Assembly: GCF_044324875.1 (NCBI RefSeq)
Contig: NZ_CP172185.1
Source: Escherichia coli
GTDB lineage: Bacteria; Pseudomonadota; Gammaproteobacteria; Enterobacterales; Enterobacteriaceae
Direction: 5' to 3' (one strand)
DNA: 64,000 nt
Shown: positions 20,026 to 57,782 of the stretch, piece by piece
Numbering within the stretch: the first letter of the stretch is position 1
Layout: every line of letters starts with the position of its first letter
The notes under the pieces: model-generated
Database searches by the model: none
Told to the model about the DNA's origin: nothing
The model's input: the letters and a program-made list of their open reading frames with translations, nothing else
Program-made: the position numbers and the translations under genes

Positions 20026-20086
20026 GGTATCCGTTCTGCTGAAGTGTCATGGCGTTGATTTTACGGTGACTCTTCGACAGTGAAAA

Positions 20087-20108
20087 GAAAAAAGGCCGCA
20101 GAGCGGCC
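20087..20108. repeat. attL core, direct repeat gaaaaaaggccgcagagcggcc
   Basis: Identical 22-mer at 57761-57782; seen in sequence. Confidence 0.7.
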
Positions 20109-28292: not shown

Positions 28293-28329
28293 GTCGCTTA
28301 AGAGGCCGGACAGGAAAAAACTACAAAGA

Positions 28330-28608
28330 TTGCTCAAAAAACGCACCGAAGAGAGTCGCCAGAACGCCAGCGGCGGCACCGACACACCCACCGACACCAT
28401 TAACCTGGGCGTTGTGCTGCCGGAACTGCCGGAAATCGTGCAAGTCCGCCGCGATCTGGAAGCGCTGGGCGCGGACTTCCCCGAAGCAATGGCCCATTCC
28501 GTCTTTATGGGTGCCCGCGTTCGTCTGGGTGACGGTCGCACCGTTCACCGCGACGAGCAGACCGGGCGCATCACCGTCACCAGTCTGCAACCGGAGGCGA
28601 AACCATGA
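28330..28608 (+). CDS. small ORF after gpA (possible TTG start; alternatively ATG 28489)
   Basis: Open frame from gpA stop to 28608, stop overlaps next gene start; start codon unresolved. Confidence 0.3.
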   Translation: MLKKRTEESRQNASGGTDTPTDTINLGVVLPELPEIVQVRRDLEALGADFPEAMAHSVFMGARVRLGDGRTVHRDEQTGRITVTSLQPEAKP

Positions 28609-29015: not shown

Positions 29016-29278
29016 AAAGAATCGCCGGAACTGACTACCAGGAGCTGCTTAAAGCGGTGGAAAACTACCGTTCAGCGCTGGTGTGGTGTGAGATTAAGCC
29101 CTGTGACCCGGGAGCAGTTAAGGATTGCAACCGGGCGCGTGAGGACATTCAGCGCGTAATTGGCTACCGCTATGTAGCAGCCATTATTGACCTTGTGAAT
29201 GAACTGGAGGAAGCAAAAGAGCGCATCGCAGAACTGGAAACCCAGAATAACCCCAACCAGCAGGAGCAGAAGCCATGA
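29012..29278 (+). CDS. hypothetical protein (accessory island gene 2)
   Basis: 88-aa ORF, overlapping start/stop. Confidence 0.5.
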   Translation: MKRIAGTDYQELLKAVENYRSALVWCEIKPCDPGAVKDCNRAREDIQRVIGYRYVAAIIDLVNELEEAKERIAELETQNNPNQQEQKP

Positions 29279-29856
29279 AAAAAAGAGACCTTAAAAAACA
29301 CCTCCGTAGTCAGATTGAATATTTTGAAGATAAGGCTGCAAAAACAGGGCTTTCCGGTAAAGAGAACATGAACTTCAGGGCACACCTCCTGACGTGGAGA
29401 ATACTTAATATCACGAGAGATGGACTTGAGCCGCTAGCCTACCTGATGGAAGATGGCGAGACCCTCATACAGGATCCCAATGTGGAAATGGAGAAGAAAG
29501 AGATGGACCTGCCGATAATCGGGCTGTTTGAGATCCCTGAACTAATAGGACGTTATGAACACGAAAACCGCCAGCTTGCCGCCTTTTTATCCGTGACAAT
29601 CGAACGACTGGAAGCCGTGAAACACGATATTCCGTTCGGTTTTGATGAGCGCACCGAGGGTGATTTGCTCAGCTTTCAGATTGCCCTGAACGTGCTCACC
29701 GCAGAGCCTTCTGCGTGGCTACGCCCGGAACGGCACCACAACACGTTCGCATTTACCGTAATTCCCTACGATGCCGCACAGGAAGAGGATAACTTCGAGA
29801 CCAGGCTTGTTCCCCTGTATCAGATTGCGGATTTCTATACGTTGATTCGCTGGTAA
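29275..29856 (+). CDS. hypothetical protein (accessory island gene 3)
   Basis: 193-aa ORF, overlapping start; followed by terminator. Confidence 0.55.
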   Translation: MKKRDLKKHLRSQIEYFEDKAAKTGLSGKENMNFRAHLLTWRILNITRDGLEPLAYLMEDGETLIQDPNVEMEKKEMDLPIIGLFEIPELIGRYEHENRQLAAFLSVTIERLEAVKHDIPFGFDERTEGDLLSFQIALNVLTAEPSAWLRPERHHNTFAFTVIPYDAAQEEDNFETRLVPLYQIADFYTLIRW

Positions 29857-29870
29857 TCCCCCACAGTAAA

Positions 29871-29895
29871 ACAGCCCGACCGGGCTGTTTTTTTA
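29871..29895 (+). terminator. intrinsic terminator (acagcccgaccgggctgt + T7)
   Basis: Seen in sequence after the 29275-29856 ORF. Confidence 0.6.
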
Positions 29896-30373: not shown

Positions 30374-30748
30374 TTATTCCAGAATCAGCTGTTCAGGTGT
30401 GCAGCCGTACAGTCTGGCAAGGCGCTCAATATTTGCCCTGCGCGGGCGTTCCGTTCTTTCGAATTCGGACACGGTAGCCTGCCTGATACCCAGCGCATCC
30501 GCCACCTGCTTTTGCGTCATTCCGCGATAGATTCGCCACGCCGCCTGCATTGTGCAGCCACGCTCCGAGAGAATGTTAACCACCTCGTTGGGATACAGCG
30601 TATCAGGCGATGCACACGGTTCGTTCTGGACGTCCTCGTAGAGTTCGTCAAGGTCGCTGTCTCCTGCCAGTTTTTCAAACAACGCCACTGGCAGAATGAC
30701 GGACACCCTGTTACCCGCACCGTCAGTAATAAACTGAATCTGACTCAT
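30374..30748 (-). CDS. XRE-family HTH protein, putative antitoxin/regulator
   Basis: 124-aa ORF; C-terminal ...MTQKQVADALGIRQATVSEFERTERPRRANIERLARLYGCTPEQL typical XRE HTH; strong RBS CAGGAGGGG. Confidence 0.6.
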   Translation of the reverse strand: MSQIQFITDGAGNRVSVILPVALFEKLAGDSDLDELYEDVQNEPCASPDTLYPNEVVNILSERGCTMQAAWRIYRGMTQKQVADALGIRQATVSEFERTERPRRANIERLARLYGCTPEQLILE

Positions 30749-30794
30749 TTACCCCTCCTGCTAAACATCGGTTTATTTTTTAATTTGCTGCCGG

Positions 30795-30821
30795 TGATAA
30801 AAAACGGCGGGTCGCCCCGCC
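30795..30821 (-). terminator. hairpin ggcggg-gcga-cccgcc + T6 immediately after the RelE-like stop
   Basis: Seen in sequence (reverse complement of 30795-30821). Confidence 0.45.
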
Positions 30822-31094
30822 TTAGTATGTTGTCGAGGTTCTCCGCTGAATACGGAGGATCCTGATAACCACTATCTGCCCTCCCTCAATCGTGAACCTG
30901 ACACGGTAATGATTTACCCTGAGTCTGTACTCCCCGCCCGAGTCAGTGAGCTTTTTAATATCCAGATTCTGGAACTTCGGATAGCCATAAAGCGCGTTAA
31001 CTTTCTCGCGTAAGGATTTCTGATCCCTCGCTGGCAAAACCCGTAAATCTTTGATTGCCCGAGGGGTCCACATGATTTCAGTCGTCATAAACAC
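30822..31094 (-). CDS. RelE/ParE-superfamily toxin-like protein
   Basis: 90-aa ORF; ...KKLTDSGGEYRLRVNHYRVRFTIEGGQIVVIRI... matches the RelE/ParE pattern (KxL..G...YRLRVGDYRV.Y). Confidence 0.6.
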   Translation of the reverse strand: MFMTTEIMWTPRAIKDLRVLPARDQKSLREKVNALYGYPKFQNLDIKKLTDSGGEYRLRVNHYRVRFTIEGGQIVVIRILRIQRRTSTTY

Positions 31095-43077: not shown

Positions 43078-43798
43078 CAGGAAAAAAACAGACAGCGCAC
43101 AGCACAGTACATCACTGCTTCCACCGTCCGCAGGGCCATTCATGCGCGCCACAGAGGCGACAGGAGTACGCATCAGTGCCATACCGGTGGACGCCGACAC
43201 CCTGTGGTCGCCGGACCGCTGCCCTGCTCACCTCCTGCCCTACCTTGCATGGGCATGTTCCGTTGACCGCTGGGACCGCAACTGGCCGGAAGAGACCAGA
43301 CGACAGGTGATTGGCCAGTCCTGGAAGGTACACCGCCAGAAAGGAACGGTCAGCGCACTGAGGGAAACAGCCGCAGCATTCGGTTATGAGATGACCATCA
43401 GTGAATGGTGGGAGCATGGAGGGCAGCCGGGCACCTTTACTGTGACCATCGGGGCAGACACTCAGGGCATCGGCCCTGAAACATGGCTGGAGATGGAGGA
43501 TCTGCTCAATGATGCACGTCCGGTTTCACGTCATATGACGGGGCTTTATGCCGCCCTGCGTTCTGGCGTGACGGTTTACTGCGCTGCGGGAGCAGGCTGT
43601 GATGAGCTTGTAACCATTCACCAGAAAGCTCGCGCCTCCCTGGCGGGCCAGGTGACCATCATCGCAGCAGGAGACACACACACAACCGACAGTGTGACCG
43701 TACTGCCGGGGGTTCCGTCAGGTATGTACGGGGAGATCTGTATCCGTACCGGCGCAGGTATATTCGTGAGTGAGATTGTGGAGGTTATCACCTTATGA
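43070..43798 (+). CDS. baseplate/tail protein I
   Basis: ATG 43070 with GAAGGAGG RBS, overlapping J stop. Confidence 0.75.
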   Translation: MSDRKKTDSAQHSTSLLPPSAGPFMRATEATGVRISAIPVDADTLWSPDRCPAHLLPYLAWACSVDRWDRNWPEETRRQVIGQSWKVHRQKGTVSALRETAAAFGYEMTISEWWEHGGQPGTFTVTIGADTQGIGPETWLEMEDLLNDARPVSRHMTGLYAALRSGVTVYCAAGAGCDELVTIHQKARASLAGQVTIIAAGDTHTTDSVTVLPGVPSGMYGEICIRTGAGIFVSEIVEVITL

Positions 43799-44910
43799 AC
43801 ACCGATTTTTATTCCGTTCTGACGGATGCCGGGCTGAAAAAACTGGCGGCAGCCGCAGCATCAGGGAATCAGATGAAAATCACCCATATGGCTGTAGGCG
43901 ACGGAAACGGAAAAGCCGTAACACCCGGCAGGGCCGACACCAGGCTTGTCAGGGAAAAATACCGTGCGCCACTGAACAGTCTGGAAGAAGACACAGAGAG
44001 ACCGGGGCATGTTATCGCAGAAATGGTGATACCTGAAAAACAGGGAGGGTGGTGGATCAGAGAATTCGGATTATTCGACGAAGACGGCGGAATGATTGTT
44101 ACAGGCAAATTTCCTGACACATGGAAGCCTGCACCTGGTCAGGGTGGAGCACGACTGATATCAGTGAAAGTGGTTGTGGCAGTATCACATACAGAAAACA
44201 TTGTGCTGAAAGTGGATCCTTCTGTTGTCATGGCAACCCGGGAATGGGTGAACACAAAAGCAGAGCAGTTAAAGAAAGAGCTCAGACAACCTGATGCAAC
44301 CACCAAAACAAAAGGCATTGTTCAGCTTAGCAGTGACATCAACAGCACCTCTGAAACGCAGGCTGCCACCCCCGGAGCGGTAAAAGCCGTGAATGATCGT
44401 GTGGACGGAAAACAGGACGCGGATCCCACGCTCACATCTCTGTCCGGGAAAAATGCACAGCAACTGAGGCAGCTTCTGGGGCTGGGCACGCTTGCCACCC
44501 TGAACAGGGGCACCGGTTCAGGGAATGTGCCGGACATGAGTCACTTTGCGAGTAAAAAAGCAGACTACGGTTACCAGTGTTTTCCTGGCGGCATAATGAT
44601 CCAGTGGCTGCGGATCCCCTCAGACCACACAGGAAGAGCTGTCAGTCAGGAAGCCCGGGTGGCACTAAGCGGCGTGCGACTGTTTTCAGTGGAGGGTAAC
44701 TGGAACGGTAATAACATGATTAAGACCCTGGCAAACTACCAGTGGCCGAGAGTTTTCGGGGCAATTTATGCGACCGTTGCAACCAGGAATCACGGATCTG
44801 CATGGCGAGTATATCCGGTGTCCGCGAACAAGGATGTGCGTGTCGTATCCATTGCCTGGGCGGGAGAAGGTACAGATGACACTTATGTGGTTGGGGTGGG
44901 AAGAGTATGA
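43795..44910 (+). CDS. tail fibre protein (gpH-like, short)
   Basis: 371-aa ORF after baseplate I; conserved N-terminal fibre anchor region then divergent C-terminus. Confidence 0.7.
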   Translation: MNTDFYSVLTDAGLKKLAAAAASGNQMKITHMAVGDGNGKAVTPGRADTRLVREKYRAPLNSLEEDTERPGHVIAEMVIPEKQGGWWIREFGLFDEDGGMIVTGKFPDTWKPAPGQGGARLISVKVVVAVSHTENIVLKVDPSVVMATREWVNTKAEQLKKELRQPDATTKTKGIVQLSSDINSTSETQAATPGAVKAVNDRVDGKQDADPTLTSLSGKNAQQLRQLLGLGTLATLNRGTGSGNVPDMSHFASKKADYGYQCFPGGIMIQWLRIPSDHTGRAVSQEARVALSGVRLFSVEGNWNGNNMIKTLANYQWPRVFGAIYATVATRNHGSAWRVYPVSANKDVRVVSIAWAGEGTDDTYVVGVGRV

Positions 44911-45353
44911 AAATGATGTGGTCGCCGTCTGTGGGCGGTTTTTTTGGTGAAGACAGCAGCCATATACCGGAAGATGCGGTGGAGGTTGATGAATCGATGT
45001 GGAGCAGGATGATGGAGGGACAACTTGAGGGAAAAATTATCGTTAACGGCCCTGACGACCTGCCTGTTCTGGAAGAGCGTCCGGGACCGGGGCCAGAAGA
45101 ATACCGGCATCAGGCTCGCCTTGAGCTTGCTGACCTTCGCCGACAGGGGCTGGAACACATAGAGTCGATGCGCTGGCGTGACAAAGCGGTCATGAACAGG
45201 CTGGGAGAAGAGGAGAAGCAGGAGTATAACGCCTGGCTTGACTGGCTCGACGCGCTTGACAGTACGGACATATCAGGGGCACCGGATGTGGTGTGGCCGG
45301 TGATGCCCGTCACGGTGGTTCCTGAACATCCTCAGAAAAAATTGCCGGAGTGA
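44907..45353 (+). CDS. tail fibre assembly protein (gpG/Tfa-like)
   Basis: 148-aa ORF overlapping H stop; positional. Confidence 0.6.
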   Translation: MKMMWSPSVGGFFGEDSSHIPEDAVEVDESMWSRMMEGQLEGKIIVNGPDDLPVLEERPGPGPEEYRHQARLELADLRRQGLEHIESMRWRDKAVMNRLGEEEKQEYNAWLDWLDALDSTDISGAPDVVWPVMPVTVVPEHPQKKLPE

Positions 45354-45360
45354 ACAGCCT

Positions 45361-45386
45361 CCGGCCTGAGACTGCACTCAGGCCGG
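45361..45386. terminator. GC-rich hairpin ccggcctgag-actgca-ctcaggccgg between convergent G and U
   Basis: Seen in sequence. Confidence 0.4.
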
Positions 45387-45394
45387 AAATTCTG

Positions 45395-45841
45395 TTATCT
45401 GCCAGCATTGCGGATGATACCCGAAAGCATATCAGACACCGACGGCATCATTCGCTCCCGCAAATCCTCATCACAGCGTTCCATACTGACAGTGAACTCA
45501 ATTTTTTTGGCCTTACCGTGGCGGTCAAGTTCGCTTCGCGTTGTGCGGACAGCCGTTATCACATACATGCCGTATATCTGCCCCACACCGTCAATCAGCG
45601 GCCATGGGCGGCCAGTGTAAGCCTGCGTCGTTAAAAGGCTGAGGGAAACCTCACCGCCGGTAATTTCGGGATAAAGCACACCGGACAACGTGATCTGGTC
45701 GTCACCCGCCCCGATATACTGCCAGCTGGCCGAACGATTGATGCGTTCATTTTTAACGTGGCGCCAGGTTTTATTATGTTGCAGTTGTTGATGAGGCAGC
45801 GTACGCAACTCAAAAACAAACATGCCGTAAATCATCATCAT
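45395..45841 (-). CDS. tail protein U
   Basis: 148-aa ORF immediately downstream of tape measure gene on minus strand. Confidence 0.75.
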   Translation of the reverse strand: MMMIYGMFVFELRTLPHQQLQHNKTWRHVKNERINRSASWQYIGAGDDQITLSGVLYPEITGGEVSLSLLTTQAYTGRPWPLIDGVGQIYGMYVITAVRTTRSELDRHGKAKKIEFTVSMERCDEDLRERMMPSVSDMLSGIIRNAGR

Positions 45842-45852
45842 GCGAGGTACTC

Positions 45853-48800
45853 CTAATCTCTGTCACGGAAACTACCGACTGTCTGGCGGATACGGCGTTC
45901 CATTTCCGCACGGACGGCATCACCCACCATTTTTGCCAGTTCGCGCGGGTTTTGCGTGTGAACATCATGCAGGTGAATATGCAGTTCGCCAGTTAATCCC
46001 CATGGTGCCGGATCACTCTGACGCGGTCGGGGCGATGCGGGGGATATGGGCTGGCGCACAGCCTCAACCACCGGACGGGATGTTGCCGTTACGACGGGTG
46101 TCATTACCGGCGCAATATTGCCGGACACTACCGGTTTAATTACCGGGGAGAGCGTCGGTATAACATCGCCAGCCATAACCGGTTTGATCGCTGGCGAAAT
46201 AACCGGAGCAACAGACTCAGCCATGACGGAACTGACAGGCTGAGGCGCTCTCACTATGCCAGCATCGATAACCAGCATGAGCTCGCGTACTGCCTCAAGG
46301 ACAGGACGGGATATTGCCGCCATCACTGGTGTCATTAGCGGGGAGAACGTCGGCATGACATCGTGAGTCATAACCGGTTTGATCACCGGCGAAACCACCG
46401 GCGTAATATTACCGGACAGTACCGGACGGACGACCGGAGGAATAACCGGCACATTATTCACGGACACCACCGGCTTCACGACCGGCGACACGTTCGCCGT
46501 GGTGGATATCAGCGGCGAAACACTGACAGGCGGTGGCGCTGGCAGCGGTGGCAACGAAGGCACACTGACCGACGGCACCTGCGGCAGTCTGACAGGTGGC
46601 TCACTGACACTACCCGGTAACAGGGAAGCTGCGCGGTTAAAGCGTTCCTCCTTCCACTCACCACGAACGGCCAGCGCTTCCGGCAGGTTTTTAAAGATAA
46701 TATCGCCGGGACCAGTGCGTTTTTTCGCCTGTTTCGCCTCATCCAGCAGGCCACCGGTGTTATCGACGATTTTATTCAGGCGACGCATGGTGCCGGTATT
46801 CTCCCCCGTCAGCGGAGCAGTTGCTGCAGGTGCAGGTACTGGCGGCTTTTTGTCTTTGTCATTTTGCGGCGGATTAATGACATTAACATCCGCCAGGAGC
46901 ATGGCGGCTTTCTCGTTCAGCAGCTCCTTCTGCTTCAGCTCTTCCGCCTTTTTCCGGGCGCGCTCAACCGCCGACGGAATCAGCCCGAGTTTTTCCAGCA
47001 CCCGGGTTAATGAGTCAATCAGCAGCGTAACCGGACCGGTCACCAGATTGCTGATAAACTCCCCGACCTTCTGCCCGAACGTCCGCCCGGCTTCCGTGCA
47101 CTTGTCCAGCTCATCCTTTGTTGTGCTTACCGGCGCGAACAAATCCACGAACCACTGCCACACACGCCCGATTGTCTGCCCGACATACTCAAACAATGGT
47201 CCCAGTGGTGCCACAGCCTCGCGCAGTGGCGTAAGCCCCTGCCACAGGCCGGACAAGAACCCGCCCACGACAGCCTTCAGCTGGTCCCAGTGCCGCCAGA
47301 TAAGCACTGCCGCACCGACCAGTGTCGCCACCACAAGGCCCACCGGACTTAACAGAAAACCCAGCGCCCCGCCAAGTGCGCCCACCGCACCACTCACCAT
47401 CCCCCACAGTGCGGGCAGACCTGACAGTCTGAGCGCCAGTATTCCGATACCGCGCCCCAGTGAAATCAGTGCGCCGCCAGGTGAAGTGAACGCAGCCAGC
47501 AGACCACCACGCAGCGCGCCAAGTCCCGCCTGCACACCACGAAGCCGCCCCGCAACTACGCCCAGCAGTGCAGCAAACCGTCCGGCACCGGAGGTGATAC
47601 CGACAAACAGCACGCGCCAGCCACCGATACCGCCCAGCGGACCACCGAGTACGCCGCGCAGCTGCGTCAGTAACGGCAGCGCACGACCGAGGCCGGATGT
47701 GCCGGTCAGCAGGGCAAACCCAAGACGCAGTTTTGCCAGCGGCCCCATCAACACACCAGTGGCAAGTGACAGCGCCCCCATGGCCGCAACCGCAGCCAGC
47801 AGTGCACCACCGGCAATCAGCAGTTGTTTTGTCAGTTCAGGGTGCGCCTGGGCCAGCGCGGTGACTTTCGCAATAACCCGGGTGAACGACTGCGTGACAG
47901 AACGCAGCGGCCCGTCAACGAGGTCAGCGACACGGATACGCAGCCCTTCCCATGCGCTGTTCAGTGATTTCAGGTCGCCGTCCAGGTTGTCCGCCATGAT
48001 TCTGGCGTTTTCTTCCAGTTCGCCGTTCGCTGCCTGAATCTCACGCGTCAGGCGCGGCAGGTTTTTTTCGCCTGCCTGTTCAACCAGGCTCATCAGGGAG
48101 ACATACGCCTCCTGCCCGGCAATATCTGAAAAGAACGAGACTTTTGCCGCGTTACCGTATTTACGGGTGGCCTGATACAGCTCATACAGGATATCTTCCA
48201 TCGGGCGCATGTTCCCGTAAGCATCCTGCGTTTCCACGCCCAGCTGTTTCAGCGCCTTTGCTGCCGCTTTAGGCGGGTTCACAAGGCGGGACAGACTGGA
48301 GCGCAGCGCCGTACCAGCATCACTGCCACGTATCCCCATCGACCCAAGCAACCCGGTCATGGCTGCGGTCTGTTCAAGAGACAGACCGAGTGAGGCGGCG
48401 ACCGGTCCCGTATATTTCATCGTCTCACCAAGCCCGCGCAGGTCGGTATTGGTGCGGGTGAACGTTGCGGCCAGCGTGTCACCCACGCGGTTCATCTGGT
48501 CGGCAGACAACCCGAACTGCGTAAGGATATTTGAGCTGATATCGGCCGTCTGACCGAGGTCCATGCCGCTGGCCGTTGCCAGATTCAGCACGCCGGGAAG
48601 AGCCGCCTGTATCGCCTGCGGCGTGAACCCCGCCATGGCAAGGAACGCCTGACCGCTGGCAGCATCACCTGCGGTAAACTGCGTTTCGGAGCCGAGTTTA
48701 AGCGCCTGTTCGCGCAGCGCCTTAAACTGCGGACTGTTTTTGTCAATACGGGTCAGCGCCTGGACGCGCGACATCTCCTTACCAAAACTGACCGCCGGTT

Positions 48801-49395
48801 GCAGGAAACGCCCGGCCGCATAGCCACCTGCCGCTGCCGTGCCGACTGCCGTAAATCCACCCGCTTTCAGTTTTCCCGCCATCTCCTGAGCGCGGAAATA
48901 TTGCTGGCGTGCCTGCGTGACGCGTGCCAGAGTCTGCCGTTCACGTTCCAGCTGTTCGTTGTATTGCTGTGTTCGCCGTATGGCCTGTTGAATGGTGTTG
49001 TCACTGCCGGAAAGCGCAATACCGTGACGCCGCAGCTCACCACCCAGTTCGCGCATTCGCTGAACTTCACGCGCACGGACCTCATTGAGACGCTCAAGTT
49101 TGAGGCTCAAATCGTTCATCAGCTTTTTCTGTTTGTCAGACAGCACGGTTCCGGCGCGCTGAATTTGCTGAAGTGCGCTTAACTGGCGTTGTGCCCGGGC
49201 AATGCCGTTTCCGGCCTTGTTTGCAGCCTCGCGGGCGCGATCAAATGAACGGGCGTGGCGTTCCAGGTTTTTGATCGCACCCTGCGTTCTCTGTATGGAG
49301 TCGCCAAGCTGGCCCATCATGCGACGGGCGTTTTCGGTGGGACGGGTCAGCCTGTCAACAGCGCTGAAGGCGACCCGTATATCAAGCGTTTTCAT
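45853..49395 (-). CDS. tail tape measure protein (gpT-like), start taken at MKTLDIR
   Basis: Very long Ala/Gly-rich ORF with Pro/Val-rich repeats near C-terminus; ORF track start at 49431 is a GTG. Confidence 0.85.
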   Translation of the reverse strand: MKTLDIRVAFSAVDRLTRPTENARRMMGQLGDSIQRTQGAIKNLERHARSFDRAREAANKAGNGIARAQRQLSALQQIQRAGTVLSDKQKKLMNDLSLKLERLNEVRAREVQRMRELGGELRRHGIALSGSDNTIQQAIRRTQQYNEQLERERQTLARVTQARQQYFRAQEMAGKLKAGGFTAVGTAAAGGYAAGRFLQPAVSFGKEMSRVQALTRIDKNSPQFKALREQALKLGSETQFTAGDAASGQAFLAMAGFTPQAIQAALPGVLNLATASGMDLGQTADISSNILTQFGLSADQMNRVGDTLAATFTRTNTDLRGLGETMKYTGPVAASLGLSLEQTAAMTGLLGSMGIRGSDAGTALRSSLSRLVNPPKAAAKALKQLGVETQDAYGNMRPMEDILYELYQATRKYGNAAKVSFFSDIAGQEAYVSLMSLVEQAGEKNLPRLTREIQAANGELEENARIMADNLDGDLKSLNSAWEGLRIRVADLVDGPLRSVTQSFTRVIAKVTALAQAHPELTKQLLIAGGALLAAVAAMGALSLATGVLMGPLAKLRLGFALLTGTSGLGRALPLLTQLRGVLGGPLGGIGGWRVLFVGITSGAGRFAALLGVVAGRLRGVQAGLGALRGGLLAAFTSPGGALISLGRGIGILALRLSGLPALWGMVSGAVGALGGALGFLLSPVGLVVATLVGAAVLIWRHWDQLKAVVGGFLSGLWQGLTPLREAVAPLGPLFEYVGQTIGRVWQWFVDLFAPVSTTKDELDKCTEAGRTFGQKVGEFISNLVTGPVTLLIDSLTRVLEKLGLIPSAVERARKKAEELKQKELLNEKAAMLLADVNVINPPQNDKDKKPPVPAPAATAPLTGENTGTMRRLNKIVDNTGGLLDEAKQAKKRTGPGDIIFKNLPEALAVRGEWKEERFNRAASLLPGSVSEPPVRLPQVPSVSVPSLPPLPAPPPVSVSPLISTTANVSPVVKPVVSVNNVPVIPPVVRPVLSGNITPVVSPVIKPVMTHDVMPTFSPLMTPVMAAISRPVLEAVRELMLVIDAGIVRAPQPVSSVMAESVAPVISPAIKPVMAGDVIPTLSPVIKPVVSGNIAPVMTPVVTATSRPVVEAVRQPISPASPRPRQSDPAPWGLTGELHIHLHDVHTQNPRELAKMVGDAVRAEMERRIRQTVGSFRDRD

Positions 49396-49908
49396 GCTCT
49401 GCGTTCCCGCTGCGAAGGGCCGCCCGCTCACGCCAGGCGACCACCTCGCCGGGATCCATCAGGAAGATTTCAGCGGGAGACCAGTTGAAAATAACGGCGA
49501 TATCCGCCACAAAGTCTTCAATATGCTCAAAGGGCACGACGGTTATCAGCCTGCCGTCGCCGCCACGCTCTTCCCGCCAGAGTCCTGACCGGCCAAAAAA
49601 TTAACCGCCACCCCGCACAGCTGAATAAAATCAGCGGACCCCATGCGCTTAAGCAGAACCTCGTCCAGTCGCGGCGAAGTGACGCGCGGGAGTAACTCAA
49701 ACATCGCGTCCGTTTTCATGTTCAGCACGTCAAGCAGTGACAGCCCGCGCAGTGAACCGGCCTGCTGTACAGCAGGCGTGATTTCCACATACGTGATTTT
49801 TTTGTTACCGAGCACAAGGGGCGTTTTCAGCGTCACGCCGCGCTCACTGGTCACGTCCGCCGCATCAGCACCGTCAGTAACAGGGGCAACAACCGGATTT
49901 TCTTTCAT
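49382..49908 (-). CDS. tail assembly chaperone E' (E+E' product via programmed -1 frameshift)
   Basis: Slippery heptamer T TTT TTG (minus strand; plus-strand CAAAAAA at 49594-49600); -1 frame stays open to 49382, overlapping tape measure start. Confidence 0.5.
49546..49908 (-). CDS. tail assembly chaperone E
   Basis: 120-aa ORF between tube and tape measure genes; ends shortly after slippery TTTTTTG. Confidence 0.75.
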   Translation of the reverse strand: MKENPVVAPVTDGADAADVTSERGVTLKTPLVLGNKKITYVEITPAVQQAGSLRGLSLLDVLNMKTDAMFELLPRVTSPRLDEVLLKRMGSADFIQLCGVAVNFLAGQDSGGKSVAATAG

Positions 49909-49958
49909 GCATAAAACCTCAAATCAGGGGGCGACGCCGCGCGCCGCCGTGGAAAACA

Positions 49959-50477
49959 TTAACCACCAAGACCAATCGCCGAGCGCACGCGGTCCGGGAA
50001 GACGCTTTTGCCGTCCTTGCGTTCGATGTGGTTCAGTAAATCAATCTCCAGCACCGGACGGTCGTTAATGCTGAGTTTGTAGTAGGTACTTTTGACCGCA
50101 TAGGTGTGAGACGTGACCTCACCCTGTTTGGCCTCCCCGGTATCAATTTCCGTCACGCGACCGCGAAGCTCAATCTCGTACAGGTCACTCTGTTCTTCAT
50201 CGTTGTAGTACTCACCGACAAAGCGCAGCAGCGTACCGTCAATCGTTCCGCCGTACTTGAGGAACAGTTCGCGGGTCGGCCCGCCCATGGTGAAACTCGC
50301 ATCCAGCGCGCCGTCATCCAGGCCAAGGTCGATATTTACTGCACCGGCCATACCACCACCGCGATAGGCTTCCGTTTTACGGGTCAGTTTGGGGGGCGTG
50401 AAGCCGGTCACCCTGCCAATCTGGTTCACCCCGTCAGTAAACAGCGTGAACACCCTGAGATTTTTTGGTACGGCCAT
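49959..50477 (-). CDS. tail tube protein (FII)
   Basis: 172-aa ORF, start overlaps sheath gene stop. Confidence 0.85.
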   Translation of the reverse strand: MAVPKNLRVFTLFTDGVNQIGRVTGFTPPKLTRKTEAYRGGGMAGAVNIDLGLDDGALDASFTMGGPTRELFLKYGGTIDGTLLRFVGEYYNDEEQSDLYEIELRGRVTEIDTGEAKQGEVTSHTYAVKSTYYKLSINDRPVLEIDLLNHIERKDGKSVFPDRVRSAIGLGG

Positions 50478-50805
50478 TAAGCACCTCCAAGCGTCGCAAA
50501 TGCAGGACCAAAGAATTCATCAGTAAACGTCTGGTAAAGTTCCATATCCTCAAGCGGCGGAACGGGCGTGTACTTGTAGCGGATACGCACGCGTCCCTGA
50601 CGAAGTTCCGTGGTGCTGTTATCCACCACGTCATACCAGCACTCCGCACCAACGAGACGTCCTGACGTAACCAGCGCATCCAGTTTTGCGCGAATTGCGC
50701 TTAACACGTCTTTCACATTAGCAGGGGTCAGCGGGGCATCAATCGTTTCAAACTGCGCTTCCGCAACAGAATCAGCCAGCACCTGATGCAAAATGGCATC
50801 TGAAT
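50477..50805 (-). pseudogene. tail sheath (FI) C-terminal fragment, separated from N-terminal part by an IS
   Basis: Frame ...AIDSDAILHQVLADSVAEAQF...RIRYKYTPVPPLEDMELYQTFTDEFFGPAFATLGGA ends where tube gene starts; 5' boundary approximate. Confidence 0.6.
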
Positions 50806-50988
50806 CGATCGCAGTTTGGCATTCGAATCGATCATGATTTGGCATCCATCTCCGATCACAGTTTGGCATCACAATCGATCACGATTTGGCATGCTTCCGA
50901 TCATTGATTGGCATCCTGCCAGTCACTCCGGGAATTAACTCTTTTCACCACAGTCTCCATTGCCGTGTTTAAACCAGTGGAGACGTCA

Positions 50989-52554
50989 ATGTCCAGAAAG
51001 AGAAAATCCAGGAGCACTATGGAAACCTGTTTTAAGATCCTTCAGCTCAAGTTCGACAAGAAGCTGACTAACCGTTGTATCGGACTGACGTTACACATCA
51101 GCGCCTCAACCGTTTTTGAGGTTCTTGCCCGCTTCAAAGCCTCTTCTCTGTCATGGCCATTACCTGCTGATATATCCCATGACACGCTGGAGAAACTCAT
51201 TTTTCCGCCCAAAGACACCTTTGCATCAGAGCTTGTAATGCCTGACATGTTGTACTTCGATACGGAAATGAGAAAACCAGGTGTGACGCGGCAACTGTTG
51301 TGGATGGAATACAAGGCACAGGCGGGTAACAAAGCGATGGGATACTCGCACTTCTGCCGTTGCTACCGGGAGTGGAAAAAAACGCGACGTCTCTCCATGC
51401 GCCAGGAGCATCGTGCCGGCGAAAAGCTTTTTATCGACTTCTGTGGTCCTACGGTTCCTGTTATTAATCCGGACACCGGTGAGATACGCCGCGTGGCAAT
51501 CTTCGTGGCCGTAATGGGGGCGTCCAACTATACCTACGTTGAAGCGTGCGAAGGTCAGGACATGATGTCATGGTTAAATGCCCACAGCCGTTGCCTGACC
51601 TTCCTGGGCGGCGTACCGAAGCTGCTCATCCCCGATAACCTCAGAAGCGCAGTGAAAAAGGCCGATCGATATGAGCCTGTCATCAACGACAGTTATCAGG
51701 CACTGGCTGAGCACTATGGCACGGTTATCATCCCGGCCCGACCACGCAAACCTAAAGATAAACCAAAAGCAGAAAACGGCGTCCTCATCGTTGAACGATG
51801 GCTTCTTGCCCGCATCCGTAATGAAACCTTCCACACGCTCAGGGCGCTGAATGCGCGCCTTAGGGAGTTACTGACAGACATGAATAACCGGCCAATGAAG
51901 GGGTACGGCAATCAAACCCGTGCAGAACGCTTCCGCATACTGGATGCGCCAGCACTCTCTCCGCTGCCTCTGGCACCTTATGAATACACGGAATACAAAG
52001 CTGTGAAGGTTGGCCCTGACTACCACGTTGAATATGCCCGTCACTGGTACTCCGTTCCACACGAACTGGTCGGTCAGCGTCTGTCACTGAAGGCGGGGCA
52101 GTCGGTGGTACAGCTCTGGCACAAGGGGCAGTGTGTGGCGCAACATCCGCGCAGCACACATGAATATAAACACACAACCAATCCGCTTCACATGCCAGAG
52201 CGCCACCGGCAGCACGGGACATGGACACCGGAACGCCTGATCGAGCAGGGAAAACGTACGGGCCCGTCCACAGGCCGGGTGGTTGAATCCATGCTGAAGG
52301 CAAAACCCCATCCGGAACTGGCTTATCGTGCAGTTCTGGGGCTGCTGGCACTTCAGAAAAAATACGGCCCGGAACGGCTGGAAAAGGCCTGTTACGTTGC
52401 CCTGCACTATAACGCCCCTGACAGACGCTTTATCGACAATCTGCTGCGTCACCATCGGGAGAACCTGGAGCTTCCATTATCCCGCCAGGGCGAACAACAT
52501 CCGGCATATGCTTCAGAGCATGAAAACCTGCGTGGTCCGGGCTACTACCACTGA
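50989..52554 (+). CDS. istA: IS21-family transposase IstA
   Basis: N-terminal HTH, DDE-type central region; start taken at MSRKRKSRS (ATG 50989). Confidence 0.85.
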   Translation: MSRKRKSRSTMETCFKILQLKFDKKLTNRCIGLTLHISASTVFEVLARFKASSLSWPLPADISHDTLEKLIFPPKDTFASELVMPDMLYFDTEMRKPGVTRQLLWMEYKAQAGNKAMGYSHFCRCYREWKKTRRLSMRQEHRAGEKLFIDFCGPTVPVINPDTGEIRRVAIFVAVMGASNYTYVEACEGQDMMSWLNAHSRCLTFLGGVPKLLIPDNLRSAVKKADRYEPVINDSYQALAEHYGTVIIPARPRKPKDKPKAENGVLIVERWLLARIRNETFHTLRALNARLRELLTDMNNRPMKGYGNQTRAERFRILDAPALSPLPLAPYEYTEYKAVKVGPDYHVEYARHWYSVPHELVGQRLSLKAGQSVVQLWHKGQCVAQHPRSTHEYKHTTNPLHMPERHRQHGTWTPERLIEQGKRTGPSTGRVVESMLKAKPHPELAYRAVLGLLALQKKYGPERLEKACYVALHYNAPDRRFIDNLLRHHRENLELPLSRQGEQHPAYASEHENLRGPGYYH

Positions 52555-52570
52555 CAGAAGGAACAACAGT

Positions 52571-53326
52571 ATGAGTGATAACCTGTTAAACAAACTGACC
52601 CAACTGAAACTCCCGGCGATGGCCGGGAGCCTGATACGGCAGCGGGAAACGCCTCAGACCTACGACGAACTGTCGTTCGAGGAAAGGCTGACGCTGCTGG
52701 TTGATGACGAGCTTCTGAGCAGGGAAAACAGCCGTGTGGCACGGTTGAGAAAAAATGCCGGCCTGAAATACCAGGCAACACCGGAAGGGCTGCGCTATCC
52801 GGCCTCAAGAGGTCTGCGGGCTGAACAGATGAGAGAACTGCTGAACGGCCACTACATAACCCACAGGAAAAACCTGCTGATAACCGGTCCGACAGGATGT
52901 GGCAAGAGCTGGATAGCCAATGCGCTGGGCGAACAGGCATGTCGACAGAAACACAGCGTCCGGTACTGTAGAACCGGGCGATTACTGGAACAACTGGCTC
53001 AGGGACGTGTTGATGGCAGCTGGCTGAAATATCTGAAACAGTTGCAAAAAATACAGGTTCTAATCCTGGACGATCTGGGGCTGGAACAGTTAAGTAACGC
53101 CCAGTGTAATGACCTTCTGGAGCTCATAGAGGATCGTTACGGACAAAGCAGCACGATAGTGGTAAGCCAGTTCCCGGTAGATAAATGGCATGGTCTGATG
53201 GAGAACCCAACAACAGCAGATGCCATCCTGGACAGACTGGTACATAACTCACACCGAGTGGTCCTTCAGGGAGAGTCACTGAGGAAAAATCCCCCGGTAG
53301 TGGAAAGCAGCGAAAAAACGCGTTAA
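52571..53326 (+). CDS. istB: IS21-family helper ATPase IstB
   Basis: Start MSDNLLNKLTQLKLP; Walker A GPTGCGKS, Walker B ILDDLG. Confidence 0.9.
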   Translation: MSDNLLNKLTQLKLPAMAGSLIRQRETPQTYDELSFEERLTLLVDDELLSRENSRVARLRKNAGLKYQATPEGLRYPASRGLRAEQMRELLNGHYITHRKNLLITGPTGCGKSWIANALGEQACRQKHSVRYCRTGRLLEQLAQGRVDGSWLKYLKQLQKIQVLILDDLGLEQLSNAQCNDLLELIEDRYGQSSTIVVSQFPVDKWHGLMENPTTADAILDRLVHNSHRVVLQGESLRKNPPVVESSEKTR

Positions 53327-53409
53327 AAAGCGGTAGAAAAAGTTAAGTTCCCGGTTGATCGAATGGATGCGAATCGCTGATCGGACTTCGATGCCAATCC
53401 GTGATCGAA

Positions 53410-54406
53410 TAGAGCGGAATACGCACACCTGAGCGGTTCGCGTGTACACCTCAAAGATATACGCCTTCGTTTCCGGCGTACGGTTGCCCCAGAAGCGGAA
53501 ACCGTTACGGCGAATGATGGTGGTGATTTCCTTGTTGTTGAGATTGTTGGCATCGCTGTCTTCGGACTGAAGGGACCAGAACACCGGGCTGGAAATACCC
53601 AGCACATTTCTTACCGGCACGTTGGACAGCGATTTATGCCAGCCCTGTTCGTGGTCAATACGTGCACGTAAACCGCAGGCGTACGCCGCAGCCGGGAAGA
53701 CCTCATTAGCGCCGGATTTCGGGTTATGGGCGATGAAGTCAGGCCAGAGCAGCATAAGTTCGCGCTCGTTAAATCTGGCGCGGTAGCTGATTGCATCAGC
53801 GGGCTTCTTGCAGTTGTGACAGCCCGCGTAGACAAATGCGCGAAGTTTTTCTGCAATTACACACAGGGATTTTGTGACAGCTTCAGTATCCAGTCCGGGC
53901 GCTGCGATGATGCGCGGACGGTAACCGATGGCATCATCCTGTTCAGCTATCAGAAGTGCATACATACCGGTATAATTACCGTCGCCATCCGTGCCACCAA
54001 TGACATACTGGTCCTGCGTTTTGTGTGGGTATACAGGATGTGCATCTTCAGACTCATCAATACCAAAAAATGCCCTGTCTTCAGGATCCAGATGACCGAA
54101 TGATGTAACTCCTGTATCCGGGGCGCCCTGAGAACTGGCATCAGGAACGCGCACCACAATCACCTTCGTGCTCACCTGGTCGGCGACAGCCTTAAGCGAT
54201 TTGTAAAGCGTCCCCTTTGTGCCGGCCTTACCCAGCACATCACTGACGCGGGTCAGCAGTGTGGGTTTGTTCAGCGGGAACAGAGTTTCATCCGCGTCAT
54301 CTGCCGTAGCCACAATACCAATAACACTGGAATCCACATCATTAATGGCGGTGGCAAGGCCGGTACTTTCCCTTACGCGCGCACCATGAAAGCGTGTTTC
54401 ACTCAT
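53410..54406 (-). pseudogene. tail sheath (FI) N-terminal fragment interrupted by IS
   Basis: Start MSETRFHGARV at ATG 54406; frame runs into IS right end where translation becomes IS-derived. Confidence 0.65.
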
Positions 54407-54490
54407 ATGTTTCACCCTTGTCTGGCTGGTTGATTTTGCGTAATCATTACCCACGATGCCGCCGGTATCATCTCCTGCCCGTTCTCACCG

Positions 54491-54506
54491 TTCGCTTACA
54501 ACAAAC
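54491..54506. promoter_or_regulatory. late-promoter-like motif TTCGCTTACAACAAAC upstream of D (same 16-mer as at 35128-35143)
   Basis: Exact 16-mer shared with the scaffold-gene promoter region. Confidence 0.3.
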
Positions 54507-54566
54507 AGCCGTTCACCACGGTCGCACGCCGTGAAAACATGACGGGACACACCACGAGGGCAGACC

Positions 54567-55658
54567 ATGACCGACCTGTTAATCAACGTTCCGTCACCGG
54601 ATATCGAAATCACCATCAACAACAACAGACTCCGTAACGTCACGGAGCGGCTCATGACGCTGTCACTGACCGACAACCGGGGCTTTGAGGCGGACCGCGT
54701 CACCCTGACCATTGACGACGCGGACGGGCAGCTTCAGCTGCCACAGCGCGGCGCACGCCTGAACGTGATGATTGGCTGGCGCGGGGAGGCGCTGGTTAAC
54801 AAGGGTGTCTACATCGTTGATGAAGTGACGTGGGAAGGCCCGCCGGACAAACTGACCATCACCGCCAGCAGCGCCGATTTTCGCGAAGAGTTCAACGTGA
54901 AGCGTGAAGTCTCCTGGCACGACGTGACGGTAAAACAGGTTGTGTCAGCCATCGCGCACCGCTACGGCCTGAAAGCACAGATAAGCGATATCCTCATGGA
55001 TATCGAAATTGACCACGCAGACCAGACCGAAGAGAGCGATATATCCTTCCTGACCCGCATGGCTGAAATGCTGGGTGCGATTGCCACCGTAAAAAACGGC
55101 AGCCTGTTATTCATTCTGCCGGGTGGCGGAACCGGGCCGGACGGAAAAGCCCTGCCTTCGTTCGCCATTACCCGCAGCAGCGGCGACAGTCACCGCTTTC
55201 GCATTGCTGACCGTGATGCGTATACGGGGGTCCGGGCGCACTGGCTCGATCTGAAGTTCGGGCAAAAGAAAAAAGTGAACGTGAAGCGACGCAGGGAAGC
55301 CGGGAAACAGAAACAGGAGAAGAGCAGCAGCCGGGAAGGTGATTACATGGAGGGCGCGGAAGGGAACGTCTACGTTCTGCGCAGGACTTACCAGAATGAA
55401 GAAACCGCACGACGTGCAGCAGCTGCAAAGTGGCAGGAACTACAGCGGGGCGCGGCATCATTCTCCATCACGCTGGCGCGCGGTCGTGCCGACCTGTACC
55501 CTGAAATGCACGGCAGGGTAACAGGTTTTAAAAGCGAGGTGGACAATCAGGACTGGATTATTGCCAGGGTGGAGCACAGCATAGATGAAAGCGGCTTCAC
55601 CACACAACTGGAGCTGGAAGCGAAAATCCCCGAATGGATAGCAGATTCAGGCGGATAA
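54567..55658 (+). CDS. late control/tail protein D
   Basis: 363-aa ORF directly upstream of ogr-like gene, as in P2. Confidence 0.85.
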   Translation: MTDLLINVPSPDIEITINNNRLRNVTERLMTLSLTDNRGFEADRVTLTIDDADGQLQLPQRGARLNVMIGWRGEALVNKGVYIVDEVTWEGPPDKLTITASSADFREEFNVKREVSWHDVTVKQVVSAIAHRYGLKAQISDILMDIEIDHADQTEESDISFLTRMAEMLGAIATVKNGSLLFILPGGGTGPDGKALPSFAITRSSGDSHRFRIADRDAYTGVRAHWLDLKFGQKKKVNVKRRREAGKQKQEKSSSREGDYMEGAEGNVYVLRRTYQNEETARRAAAAKWQELQRGAASFSITLARGRADLYPEMHGRVTGFKSEVDNQDWIIARVEHSIDESGFTTQLELEAKIPEWIADSGG

Positions 55659-55701
55659 AATTAAAATGAGCCATCTCCACTCAGCCAGATAAGGAGAAGC
55701 C

Positions 55702-55953
55702 ATGTTCCGTTGTCCCCTGTGCGGTGCATCCGCACGTATCCGCACCAGTCGCAATGAAAATGATTCAGGCACAGTTCGCCTGAAGTACTACCAGTGCAAT
55801 AACCTCGAATGCGGGATCGGCTTTACCACACTGGAGGGTTTTAACAAATTCACATCAAAACGCGCCCCGTCGCCGCAGGGTACAGAGCGGATACCGTGGG
55901 AAGATTTTCCGGGATCTCACAGGGGGAATGCTCAGATGAATCTTGATATTTAA
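55702..55953 (+). CDS. ogr: Ogr/Delta-family zinc-finger late transcription activator
   Basis: MFRCPLCG...YYQCNNLECG Cys4 arrangement; position after D. Confidence 0.8.
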   Translation: MFRCPLCGASARIRTSRNENDSGTVRLKYYQCNNLECGIGFTTLEGFNKFTSKRAPSPQGTERIPWEDFPGSHRGNAQMNLDI

Positions 55954-55965
55954 GAACAATAATCA

Positions 55966-56097
55966 GGTTGAGAGGACATCATAAGGCAAGTAGATTAACG
56001 GCAGATACTTTCCCGCAACCACGGGCAAGTATTTAATTATCCATGATGAAATATGACCTAAATTGTTTTTTGCCCGCCGGAAAGCGGGCATTTTTTT
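55966..56097 (+). repeat. repeat unit 1 (GGTTGAG...GTAGATTAAC...hairpin+T-run), candidate small RNA
   Basis: Shares 5' GGTTGAG, GTAGATTAAC core, TTATCCATGAT and terminal gcccgccNNNNNNgggc+T7 with units 2/3. Confidence 0.3.
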
Positions 56098-56311
56098 ATT
56101 CTTTTGTGGTTATGGGGTCATCAGGAACCACGTGCAGATTATATTTTTGTTTTTTTGGCGTTCCTCCGGCAGCAACGAGTTCATCAATAAGACACTGACA
56201 CGCCTGAACATCCCGGGCATGTCTTAGTTTCACCTTTATTGATTTAACCTTATCCTCACCGGAGGAGAAATGCAGTTCAATCTCAATATCGTTTCTTCGG
56301 AACAATCTCAT
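56096..56311 (-). CDS. hypothetical small protein, paralogous to C-terminal half of ORF 20215-20631
   Basis: 71-aa ORF with RBS AGGGGGG; similarity noted by eye. Confidence 0.5.
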   Translation of the reverse strand: MRLFRRNDIEIELHFSSGEDKVKSIKVKLRHARDVQACQCLIDELVAAGGTPKKQKYNLHVVPDDPITTKE

Positions 56312-56580
56312 ACGCCCCCCTGAATATATCAGAAATGCTAGTATCGAAAAATGAGAAAACAGTTAGACAGGAGAAACATATTAACACAAATCATTTATAC
56401 CTATAGATGAAATTATAATTTCATTCATGAATATGATAGATAACTATATTGTGAACAAAATGAAAAATGGCTAAATTAAAAATGGGCATGGAGGAATGCC
56501 TCGTAATCAGTAATACATGATCCATACTTCCTTGTTTTGCCCGCCGGAAAGCGGGCATTTTTTTGGCGGTTACCATCGCC

Positions 56581-56765
56581 TCACCTTCCTGGTTCACACA
56601 AAGCAACCCTGATTTTCCATGAAAACTTCAGGGTTGAGCCAAAAGCACAAAGACAGTAGATTAACCAAGGGTACCCGCCACCTGCCAACAGGAACGGTAT
56701 CCAGTACGTATTAATGACTGACAATTCACATTGCTGTTTTGCCCGCCAGAAGGTGGGCATTTTTT
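56581..56765 (+). repeat. repeat unit 2 (~203-bp period) ending in intrinsic terminator, candidate small RNA
   Basis: Near-identical to unit 3 with scattered substitutions; terminator stem 56740-56757 + T-run. Confidence 0.35.
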
Positions 56766-56783
56766 TGGCAGTTATCATGGACG

Positions 56784-56968
56784 CACCTTCATGACACATA
56801 TTAAGCAGACCTGATTTTTCCATGAAAAATTCATGGTTGAGACAAAAGCACAAAAACAGTAGATTAACCACGGGTGCCTGCCACCTGACAACAGGAAGGG
56901 GTGTCCATTATCCATGATATACAAACGAAAAGTCTTGTCTTTTGCCCGCCGTTGCGCGGGCTTTTTTT
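56784..56968 (+). repeat. repeat unit 3 ending in intrinsic terminator, candidate small RNA
   Basis: As unit 2; terminator stem 56943-56960 + T8 overlaps hicB stop. Confidence 0.35.
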
Positions 56969-57366
56969 TATCCAAGAACCCTGTCTGCAGCAACACGCGC
57001 CAGAAATCCAGAGCGGCTACCGTATTCAGGATGAGACTCAACGAACTGATCAATGCGACGAATAAGCAGAGATGGCAGGGTAACATTGATTTTTTCCGAT
57101 TTCCCCATCAGGCGGGACACATCCACCTCAACGAGCGCCCACACTGCATCACTGTATTCAGGATCTGATTGCCATTCATCAAGATTTGTAGCGACAGGGA
57201 TAGACTCACCAGATTCAACCAGTAATTCTACGTGTGCCTCAATGGCTTCACGGGCACTGTCTACCGCATCCTGAAAACTATCACCGCCAGAAAAACAGCC
57301 GGGCAGATCTGGGACGCGAACACCAAAAGATGAATCCCCCCGGTCAATAGCGATTGCATATAACAT
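56968..57366 (-). CDS. hicB: HicB-family antitoxin
   Basis: MLYAIAIDRGDSSFGVRVPDLPGCFSGGDSFQDAVDSAREAIEAH... typical HicB N-domain; C-terminal RHH-like tail. Confidence 0.8.
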   Translation of the reverse strand: MLYAIAIDRGDSSFGVRVPDLPGCFSGGDSFQDAVDSAREAIEAHVELLVESGESIPVATNLDEWQSDPEYSDAVWALVEVDVSRLMGKSEKINVTLPSLLIRRIDQFVESHPEYGSRSGFLARVAADRVLG

Positions 57367-57388
57367 TGAGACCTCCAGAAGGTGGGGC

Positions 57389-57568
57389 TTACAGCCCCGC
57401 CTGTTTCTTAATACTTTTTAAAGTTGGTAAAGGTATATCTTTTTGAGGGTGTTTTACCGTTACCAGCCCCTTCTTTGTCGGATGTTTGAATTGATGATGA
57501 CTCCCCTTAACCCTAACAAGATACCATCCATCCGCCTCTATCATTGCTATTGCACTTTTGCTATCCAT
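57389..57568 (-). CDS. hicA: HicA-family toxin (59 aa; absent from ORF track)
   Basis: Manual translation of minus strand: MDSKSAIAMIEADGWYLVRVKGSHHQFKHPTKKGLVTVKHPQKDIPLPTLKSIKKQAGL; 20 bp upstream of hicB. Confidence 0.75.
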   Translation of the reverse strand: MDSKSAIAMIEADGWYLVRVKGSHHQFKHPTKKGLVTVKHPQKDIPLPTLKSIKKQAGL

Positions 57569-57722: not shown

Positions 57723-57760
57723 GAATTAATTTTTATTTATAAATCAATGCATTATACAAA

Positions 57761-57782
57761 GAAAAAAGGCCGCAGAGCGGCC
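57761..57782. repeat. attR core gaaaaaaggccgcagagcggcc (part of ihfA terminator hairpin)
   Basis: Identical to 20087-20108; followed by T-run, i.e. intact terminator after ihfA. Confidence 0.7.

Follow-up and report, generated by a model that had tools for sequence, protein, structure and literature searches.

The tail sheath gene of a prophage carried in the 64-kb stretch of Escherichia coli DNA analyzed here (hereafter the window) is a disrupted gene, a single pseudogene from which the full-length reading frame is absent. According to our analysis, the insertion sequence ISSso4, or a near-identical variant of it, very probably transposed into this resident P88-like prophage at codon 327/328 of the sheath gene, generating a 7-bp duplication.

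Disruption of the tail sheath gene

A sequence-only reading of the same DNA had proposed that an insertion sequence splits the sheath gene. Our results support this proposal, as the frames on both sides of the element join into one sheath protein of 427 aa, identical at 425 of the 427 positions to WP_097743695.1, the product of the intact gene in a sister prophage. No intact sheath frame was recovered, and both flanks align to one and the same sheath. The fragments and the repeats that border the insertion are as follows.

53426-54406, minus strand: sheath 5' fragment, codons 1-327 (tblastn, residues 1-327, 99.4% identity)
50477-50786, minus strand: sheath 3' fragment, codons 326-427 plus the stop codon (residues 326-427, 98% identity)
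50780-50786, no strand: target-site duplication CACCTGA, left copy (perfect 7-bp direct repeat)
53426-53432, no strand: target-site duplication CACCTGA, right copy (perfect 7-bp direct repeat)

The single 427-aa ORF was obtained in silico by deleting the IS together with one copy of the duplication. In the interrupted gene, the 5' frame reads 49 codons into the IS, which lies in the orientation opposite to the sheath gene, and ends at a stop at 53276-53278, giving a fusion product of 376 aa; a look-up of this exact protein in the public gene-position index found no record. The 3' fragment consists of 102 codons (50785-50480) followed by a stop at 50477-50479 and lacks a start codon of its own. 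A minus-strand ORF that begins with a GTG at 50872, within the left end of the IS, runs in frame into this fragment, and it is formally possible that some C-terminal sheath polypeptide is made from it.

Pfam analysis of the restored sheath identified Gp18_domIII_N (28-87), Phage_sheath_1 (159-310), and Phage_sheath_1C (314-408), while no NCBIfam family matched the restored protein. The first two domains are in the 5' fragment and nearly all of Phage_sheath_1C is in the 3' fragment, the break, which follows residue 327, falling at the beginning of the conserved C-terminal domain.

The empty site is found in the sister prophage L002, where the uninterrupted sequence reads CAGCCAGCACCTGAGCGG and CACCTGA is present in a single copy. 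Comparison by blastn aligned positions 6650-12000 of L002 with 45417-50786 of the window, and positions 11994-15538 with 53426-56969, so that the two alignments overlap by exactly 7 bp. The junctions, which the earlier reading had left open to within 10 bp on either side, can now be placed to the base. Duplications of 4, 5, 5, 6, 6, 7, 7, and 7 bp flank eight further copies of this IS, and the range given by ISfinder for IS21-family duplications is 4-8 bp. A duplication of 5 bp at the present site was also considered but ruled out, since the termini are fixed by the eight other copies and the repeats that directly abut them are 7 bp long.

The inserted element

The two sheath fragments are separated by a complete IS21-family element of 2,639 bp (50787-53425, plus strand) with TG...CA ends, whose termini are TGCAAAATGG at the 5' side and GGAATACGCA at the 3' side. 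An istA/istB element of about 2.6 kb on the plus strand had been predicted at this place, with coordinates that proved correct to within about 20 bp.

50787-50915, plus strand: left terminal inverted-repeat region, six GGCAT-type units (one terminal partial and five full)
51019-52554, plus strand: istA, DDE transposase, 511 aa from the PGAP start (NF033546 and Pfam)
52571-53326, plus strand: istB, AAA+ helper ATPase, 251 aa (NF038214 and Pfam)
53340-53425, minus strand: right terminal inverted-repeat region, units inverted relative to the left end

IstA scored 284.6 bits against NF033546 (cut-off 160) and contains the Pfam domains rve and Mu-transpos_C_2; an alternative ATG at 50989 gives a protein of 521 aa. 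IstB scored 257.8 bits against NF038214 (cut-off 200) and matched Pfam IstB_IS21 at 1.2e-60. Assignment of the element to the IS21 family therefore stands, on the basis of istA followed by istB on the plus strand, family-profile scores above their cut-offs, TG...CA termini, multi-repeat ends, and a short duplication.

The full units of the left end follow the pattern GATC-N4-WTTKGCAT and are spaced by 22-24 bp, the copies matching the exact motif being 23, 24, 23, and 22 bp apart. At the right end we recognized two clear units (53391-53406 and 53367-53382), a degenerate third one, and a diverged terminal unit. The motif GATCNNNNWTTKGCAT has six matches in the window, all of them at the ends of the IS (five on the plus strand at the left, one on the minus strand at the right), whereas 0.06 matches are expected by chance and six were reached in none of 100 shuffles; with one mismatch tolerated, the right end yields another copy. 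This agrees with the earlier description of a motif present in several copies and in inverted orientation at the two ends. Ends of the IS21 type are known to consist of terminal inverted repeats in which two or more direct repeat units are spaced by about 23 bp (PMC10122671), and the units described here are presumed to be binding sites for IstA.

ISSso4 is an ISfinder name, and the element was originally described from Shigella sonnei. Positions 1-2639 of our element are 100% identical to many copies on E. coli chromosomes and plasmids, and these alignments end exactly at the termini. Such identical copies occupy many unrelated chromosomal and plasmid sites, up to 23 places in one genome, and both ORFs are intact in the present copy. 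The istA DNA is identical to that of the copy encoding WP_045147483.1, and the IstB accession, WP_001282653.1, is common to the 100%-identical copies and to a copy on the E. coli plasmid pCT (NC_014477, 41986-44624). The pCT copy, which is named ISSso4 in the literature (PMC6361801), is also 2,639 bp long and has the same termini and repeat-unit ends, but it lies at another insertion site and differs by 7 mismatches (99.7% nucleotide identity). PGAP labels the IstB found here as an IS21-like element ISSso4 family helper ATPase. By these two proxies, namely identity to the pCT copy and the PGAP label, the element probably corresponds to ISSso4 or a near-identical variant, although it is formally possible that ISfinder lists it as an isoform with a different name. 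The element is already well known, and its jump into a prophage gene is an ordinary event.

Probable consequences for the prophage

The interrupted gene belongs to a prophage inserted between btuC and ihfA of E. coli and collinear with prophages of strains F374 and Ch1, the chromosome resuming at about 57737-57758. From its sequence relationships, this prophage is P88-like (Xuanwuvirus, Peduoviridae) and of the P2 family in the broad sense only. Its head, lysis, and baseplate genes are of P2 type, and the sheath is found in the expected context, with the tube, E/E', tape measure, and gpU genes of a P2-type late region.

20084-57782, no strand: P88-like prophage (25-bp direct repeat, 20084-20108 / 57758-57782)
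49959-50477, minus strand: tail tube gene (major tail tube protein in the annotation of relatives)
49385-49908, minus strand: tail chaperone E/E', downstream of the sheath on the same strand
45853-49431, minus strand: tape measure, downstream of the sheath on the same strand
45395-45841, minus strand: gpU-like tail protein, downstream of the sheath on the same strand

The tube gene, the first of the genes that polarity would probably affect, has an ATG that overlaps the stop codon of the sheath (TAATG). When ORFs from variable regions close to the prophage hotspots were scanned with PADLOC and PHROG, only generic HTH/regulator matches or none were obtained.

The prophage is probably tail-defective, because almost all of the C-terminal domain, which forms the contacts between subunits in solved sheaths, is missing from the truncated product (Pfam 314-408, with the break after residue 327). 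The C-terminus and C-terminal domain of sheath proteins have a role in the inter-subunit "handshake" and in ring stacking (PMC10457771). Deprived of the domain through which subunits and rings are joined by beta-sheet contacts, the truncated sheath would not be expected to polymerize around the tube, and induction would yield at best DNA-filled heads devoid of functional contractile tails.

The insertion may also act on the genes located downstream. The inserted 2.6 kb, read antisense to istA and istB, would stand between the promoter and the tube, E/E', tape measure, and U genes and would be left untranslated past its first 49 codons. The expression of these tail genes is therefore probably reduced, through loss of translational coupling combined with transcriptional polarity. 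A sigma-70 scan of positions 49800-54700 returned no promoter site, and the late-promoter motif TGT-N12-ACA was not found upstream of the sheath, that is, between the sheath and the D genes (it has 8 matches in the window, a total below chance expectation). As no promoter was found near the sheath, the operon structure is deduced from gene order alone. Within the IS, 10 terminator-like hairpins were counted on the minus strand, where 5.4 +/- 2.1 are expected, but their matches to the consensus are weak and we set them aside as evidence for polarity.

It is possible, if somewhat doubtful, that the prophage was inactive beforehand or is inactivated through another lesion too, in which case the IS would be one of several hits to a prophage in decay and not the reason for its defectiveness. 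In the gpA-like replication endonuclease gene, a run of seven A is present at 28195-28201, where all nine close relatives have six A and an intact annotated gene, and the resulting +1 frameshift leaves an ORF of 724 aa instead of 829 aa. However, the only recognized domain (Phage_GPA, 182-506) ends about 190 residues before the frameshift, which may therefore be tolerated, and an extra base in a homopolymer could be a sequencing error. Moreover, all of the roughly 45 other prophage genes that we compared have intact, full-length counterparts with 96-100% identity. The sheath is thus perhaps not the sole defect, and the endonuclease frameshift may be a second lesion.

We consider it improbable that the insertion has little functional effect because sheath or whole tails are supplied in trans by a related prophage, so that the element would spread as heads with borrowed tails. 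Heads and tails of P2-type phages do assemble independently, and several genomes containing this type of prophage have 2-3 sheath-like loci each. On the other hand, no second tail gene cluster is present within the window, the likely polarity would hit five tail genes together, and the possible gpA lesion would hinder replication as well.

Even lower is the probability that we give to the prophage persisting as a head-only element by tail piracy, or to selection having favoured the IS for disarming lytic killing. If the former were true, filled capsids would be completed by the tails of a co-resident Peduoviridae prophage as the result of a single IS hit; if the latter, lytic killing would be disarmed while the toxin-antitoxin and accessory genes are kept. 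As for an assembly artefact that misplaced a repeated IS into the sheath gene, a known risk since such multicopy repeats often cause misassembly, it is hardly credible, because a perfect 7-bp duplication abutting complete IS termini, together with exact restoration of the ORF once the IS and one repeat copy are removed, is the signature of real transposition, and a misjoin would not make a target duplication.

Returning to transposition into the resident prophage, a 300-bp junction query was covered to at least 80% in none of the 5,426 complete E. coli genomes searched, so that the source strain and its lineage are absent from this set. Judged from this comparison, the insertion is strain-specific, and it is probably recent, because other copies match the IS at 100% identity and the junction occurs in no complete E. 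coli genome searched. The flanks of the junction are 99% E. coli.

These results are mainly of value for annotation. One IS-disrupted sheath pseudogene should be recorded here rather than two hypothetical proteins, with the prophage marked as probably non-infectious, and the insertion can serve as a strain-specific marker. The case is a further example of ISSso4 in prophage structural genes and opens no new biological question.

Relation to known systems

Escherichia phage P88 and other temperate phages of the genus Xuanwuvirus show the same one-strand order of tail genes (sheath, tube, E/E', tape measure, and U), with gpD divergent. The P88 sheath is 77.5% identical to the one described here and shorter (394 aa versus 427 aa), and the present prophage differs further in its interrupted sheath gene and in its tail-fibre module.

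The sheath of the R-type pyocin, PA0622 (PDB 3J9Q), is homologous over residues 130-417 (E = 4.9e-42), although its identity to our sheath is much lower and it is a component of a tailocin, not a phage protein. When mapped on PA0622, the break is located around residue 289 of 386, upstream of its C-terminal domain, and the 3' sheath fragment aligns from about residue 289 to 379.

The prototypes IS21 and IS5376, studied by biochemistry and cryo-EM (PMC10122671, PMC11208146), share with our element the istA-istB operon, a terminal CA, and a short target duplication. For IS5376, the duplication was 5 bp in 10 of 10 insertions sequenced in vitro (PMC10122671), compared to 4-7 bp among the copies of the IS described here and 7 bp at the sheath site. 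The ends of the prototypes, like those of our element, contain direct repeat units about 23 bp apart, and the prototype units bind IstA. However, the prototypes have two repeats per end (L1/L2 and R1/R2), whereas the element in the sheath gene has six at the left end and two to three at the right end.

The interrupted sheath gene

Two sheath-like ORFs on the minus strand, with two plus-strand ORFs between them, were listed in the 48.5-56.5 kb region:

53276-54454, minus strand: sheath-like ORF, N-terminal side
50477-50872, minus strand: sheath-like ORF, C-terminal side
50908-52554, plus strand: ORF between the sheath-like ORFs
52328-53326, plus strand: second ORF between the sheath-like ORFs

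A sequence-only reading of this stretch had claimed that an IS21-family element splits the sheath gene and had proposed aligning the flanks to an intact sheath. In the junction sequences, the plus-strand block starts with TGCAAAATGGCAT at 50787 and ends with GGAATACGCA at 53425, and both ends are directly adjoined by the heptamer CACCTGA (50780-50786 and 53426-53432), a 7-bp duplication. With 50477-50786 joined directly to 53433-54406, the minus strand has one continuous ORF of 427 codons. This restored sheath differs from the intact WP_097743695.1 of L002, the sister prophage in E. coli Ch1, by two residues only (H227Y and R266T), which bears out the split.

The uninterrupted target site in L002 is CAGCCAGCACCTGAGCGG. 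Using blastn, L002 6650-12000 aligned with window positions 45417-50786, and L002 11994-15538 with 53426-56969. Since these two alignments share exactly the 7 bp that are duplicated, the insertion bears the mark of a genuine transposition event and not of a misassembly.

The host prophage

The window is E. coli chromosome; the flanks share about 99% identity with E. coli genomes. A 25-bp att-like direct repeat (AAAGAAAAAAGGCCGCAGAGCGGCC; 20084-20108 and 57758-57782) marks both ends of the prophage, which sits between btuC and ihfA and is collinear with those of strains F374 (L003) and Ch1. Escherichia phage P88, a Xuanwuvirus in the family Peduoviridae, has a sheath 77.5% identical to the restored sheath. 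Its layout is also that of the prophage: the genes for sheath, tube, E/E', tape measure and U share one strand, and gpD is divergent. On these two grounds, the assignment to the "P2 family" made in the sequence-only reading is correct in a broad sense.

Several other features of this prophage were observed. A HicA/HicB toxin-antitoxin pair (56971-57568, minus strand) lies just inside the right end. The tail-fibre and fibre-assembly module (43359-45417) is unlike that of the closest prophages (2.06 kb versus 3.29 kb), and the fibre matches theirs at about 42% identity in its N-terminal part only, a difference that suggests exchange of a host-range module. Between the replication genes and the portal lies a variable spot (29031-29890) in which relatives hold a DUF6516 gene. 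Here the spot carries a 193-aa ORF (29275-29856, plus strand) with no match in PADLOC and PHROG scans, and it is next to a RelE/HTH pair (30374-31088). The tape-measure ORF (45853-49431, minus strand) encodes 1,192 aa versus 935 aa in P88 and includes a long Pro/Val-rich repetitive part with PVxSPVIKPV-type units. PGAP labels the relatives' orthologue an incomplete pseudogene; the L003 ORF is nonetheless intact (1,185 aa), and the label is probably an annotation artefact.

In a gene-by-gene tblastn search of the window with the L003 proteins, nearly all conserved genes had an intact full-length counterpart (96-100% identity). The one exception is the gpA-like replication endonuclease (26118-28608), whose alignment is split between two frames (residues 1-715 and 693-829). 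L003 has A6 where the window has an A7 run (28195-28201); the extra base causes a +1 frameshift and shortens the ORF from 829 to 724 aa, with its end at 28292. The nine close relatives among complete E. coli genomes all have A6, without the extra base, and their genes are annotated as intact. The frameshift may be a real second lesion or an error in sequencing a homopolymer. Its effect on the endonuclease is uncertain, as the Phage_GPA domain (182-506) ends well upstream of it.

Predicted consequences for the tail

The break follows residue 327 of the restored sheath, within the Pfam domain Phage_sheath_1C (residues 314-408), and corresponds to about residue 289 of 386 in the R-pyocin sheath PA0622, a solved structure that matches at E = 4.9e-42. 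Subunits of contractile sheaths with known structure are joined by a "handshake" between the C-terminus of one and the N-terminus of its neighbour; the sheet formed in this way augments the C-terminal domain of an adjacent-ring subunit and so holds the rings together (PMC10457771). The interrupted gene would encode residues 1-327 followed by 49 residues from the element. Because this product would be devoid of the ring-linking C-terminal domain, we infer that it should not polymerise. The sequence-only reading's view that the prophage is probably tail-defective is thus supported.

The element is antisense to the sheath gene, whose stop codon is overlapped by the ATG of the tube gene (TAATG); next on that strand come E/E', tape measure and U. 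Translational coupling from sheath to tube would be lost, and upstream there would now be 2.6 kb read antisense to istA/istB and translated for its first 49 codons only. Expression of tube, E/E', tape measure and U should thus fall. As a sigma-70 scan of 49800-54700 and a search of the window for a TGT-N12-ACA motif did not find the sheath promoter, this prediction is drawn from gene order alone.

Identity, spread and ends of the element

IstA matches NCBIfam NF033546 (284.6 bits, cut-off 160) and contains Pfam rve and Mu-transpos_C_2 domains, and IstB matches NF038214 (257.8 bits, cut-off 200) and Pfam IstB_IS21 (1.2e-60). The whole element (positions 1-2639) is 100% identical to copies in E. 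coli chromosomes and plasmids; places that match 80% or more of its length occur in 297 records among complete E. coli genomes, with up to 23 places per genome. PGAP labels istA of matching copies an IS21 family transposase and istB an IS21-like element ISSso4 family helper ATPase. ISSso4 has been reported on plasmid pCT (PMC6361801), whose copy is 99.7% identical over the full length. The name ISSso4 is thus taken from proxies, the PGAP label and the pCT copy, rather than from the ISfinder reference.

None of 5,426 complete E. coli genomes covers at least 80% of a 300-bp query spanning the sheath-element junction, and the fusion protein has no record in the public gene index. Together with the identity of the element to other copies and the near identity of the restored sheath to intact ones, these comparisons point to a recent and strain-specific insertion.

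Other strains have identical or near-identical copies inside phage terminase genes, and further loci are hit as well: in E. coli 3R, a dynamin-family gene contains an identical copy. The loci listed for these cases are L009 (E. coli E2, NZ_CP104509.1 2010950-2013708), L001 (E. coli 3R) and H84. Judging from these copies, prophage genes are ordinary targets, and disruption of their structural genes by ISSso4-type elements is recurrent.

The GATC...TTTGGCAT motif noticed at the ends is confirmed: the 64 kb contain six copies of GATCNNNNWTTKGCAT, versus 0.06 expected by chance, five of them on the plus strand (50807-50914) and one on the minus strand (53391-53406), and allowing one mismatch adds a second right-end copy (53367-53382). 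The left-end copies are spaced by 23, 24, 23 and 22 bp. Repeat units lie about 35/36 and 59 nt from the terminus at both ends, and the left end has three more. ISSso4-type ends are asymmetric, with six units on the left (50787-50915) versus two to three on the right (53340-53425). These ends agree with published IS21 ends, which carry multiple direct repeats 23 bp apart, bound by IstA, and a terminal CA (PMC10122671).

Eight other copies have target duplications of 4, 5, 5, 6, 6, 7, 7 and 7 bp, so the 7 bp found here fit the range of the element. The insertion sequence, its mechanism and the kind of target gene are all known, and the loss of function is predictable. In its target duplications the element differs from IS5376: each of ten IS5376 insertions sequenced in vitro had 5 bp, whereas nine independent ISSso4-type copies gave 4-7 bp.
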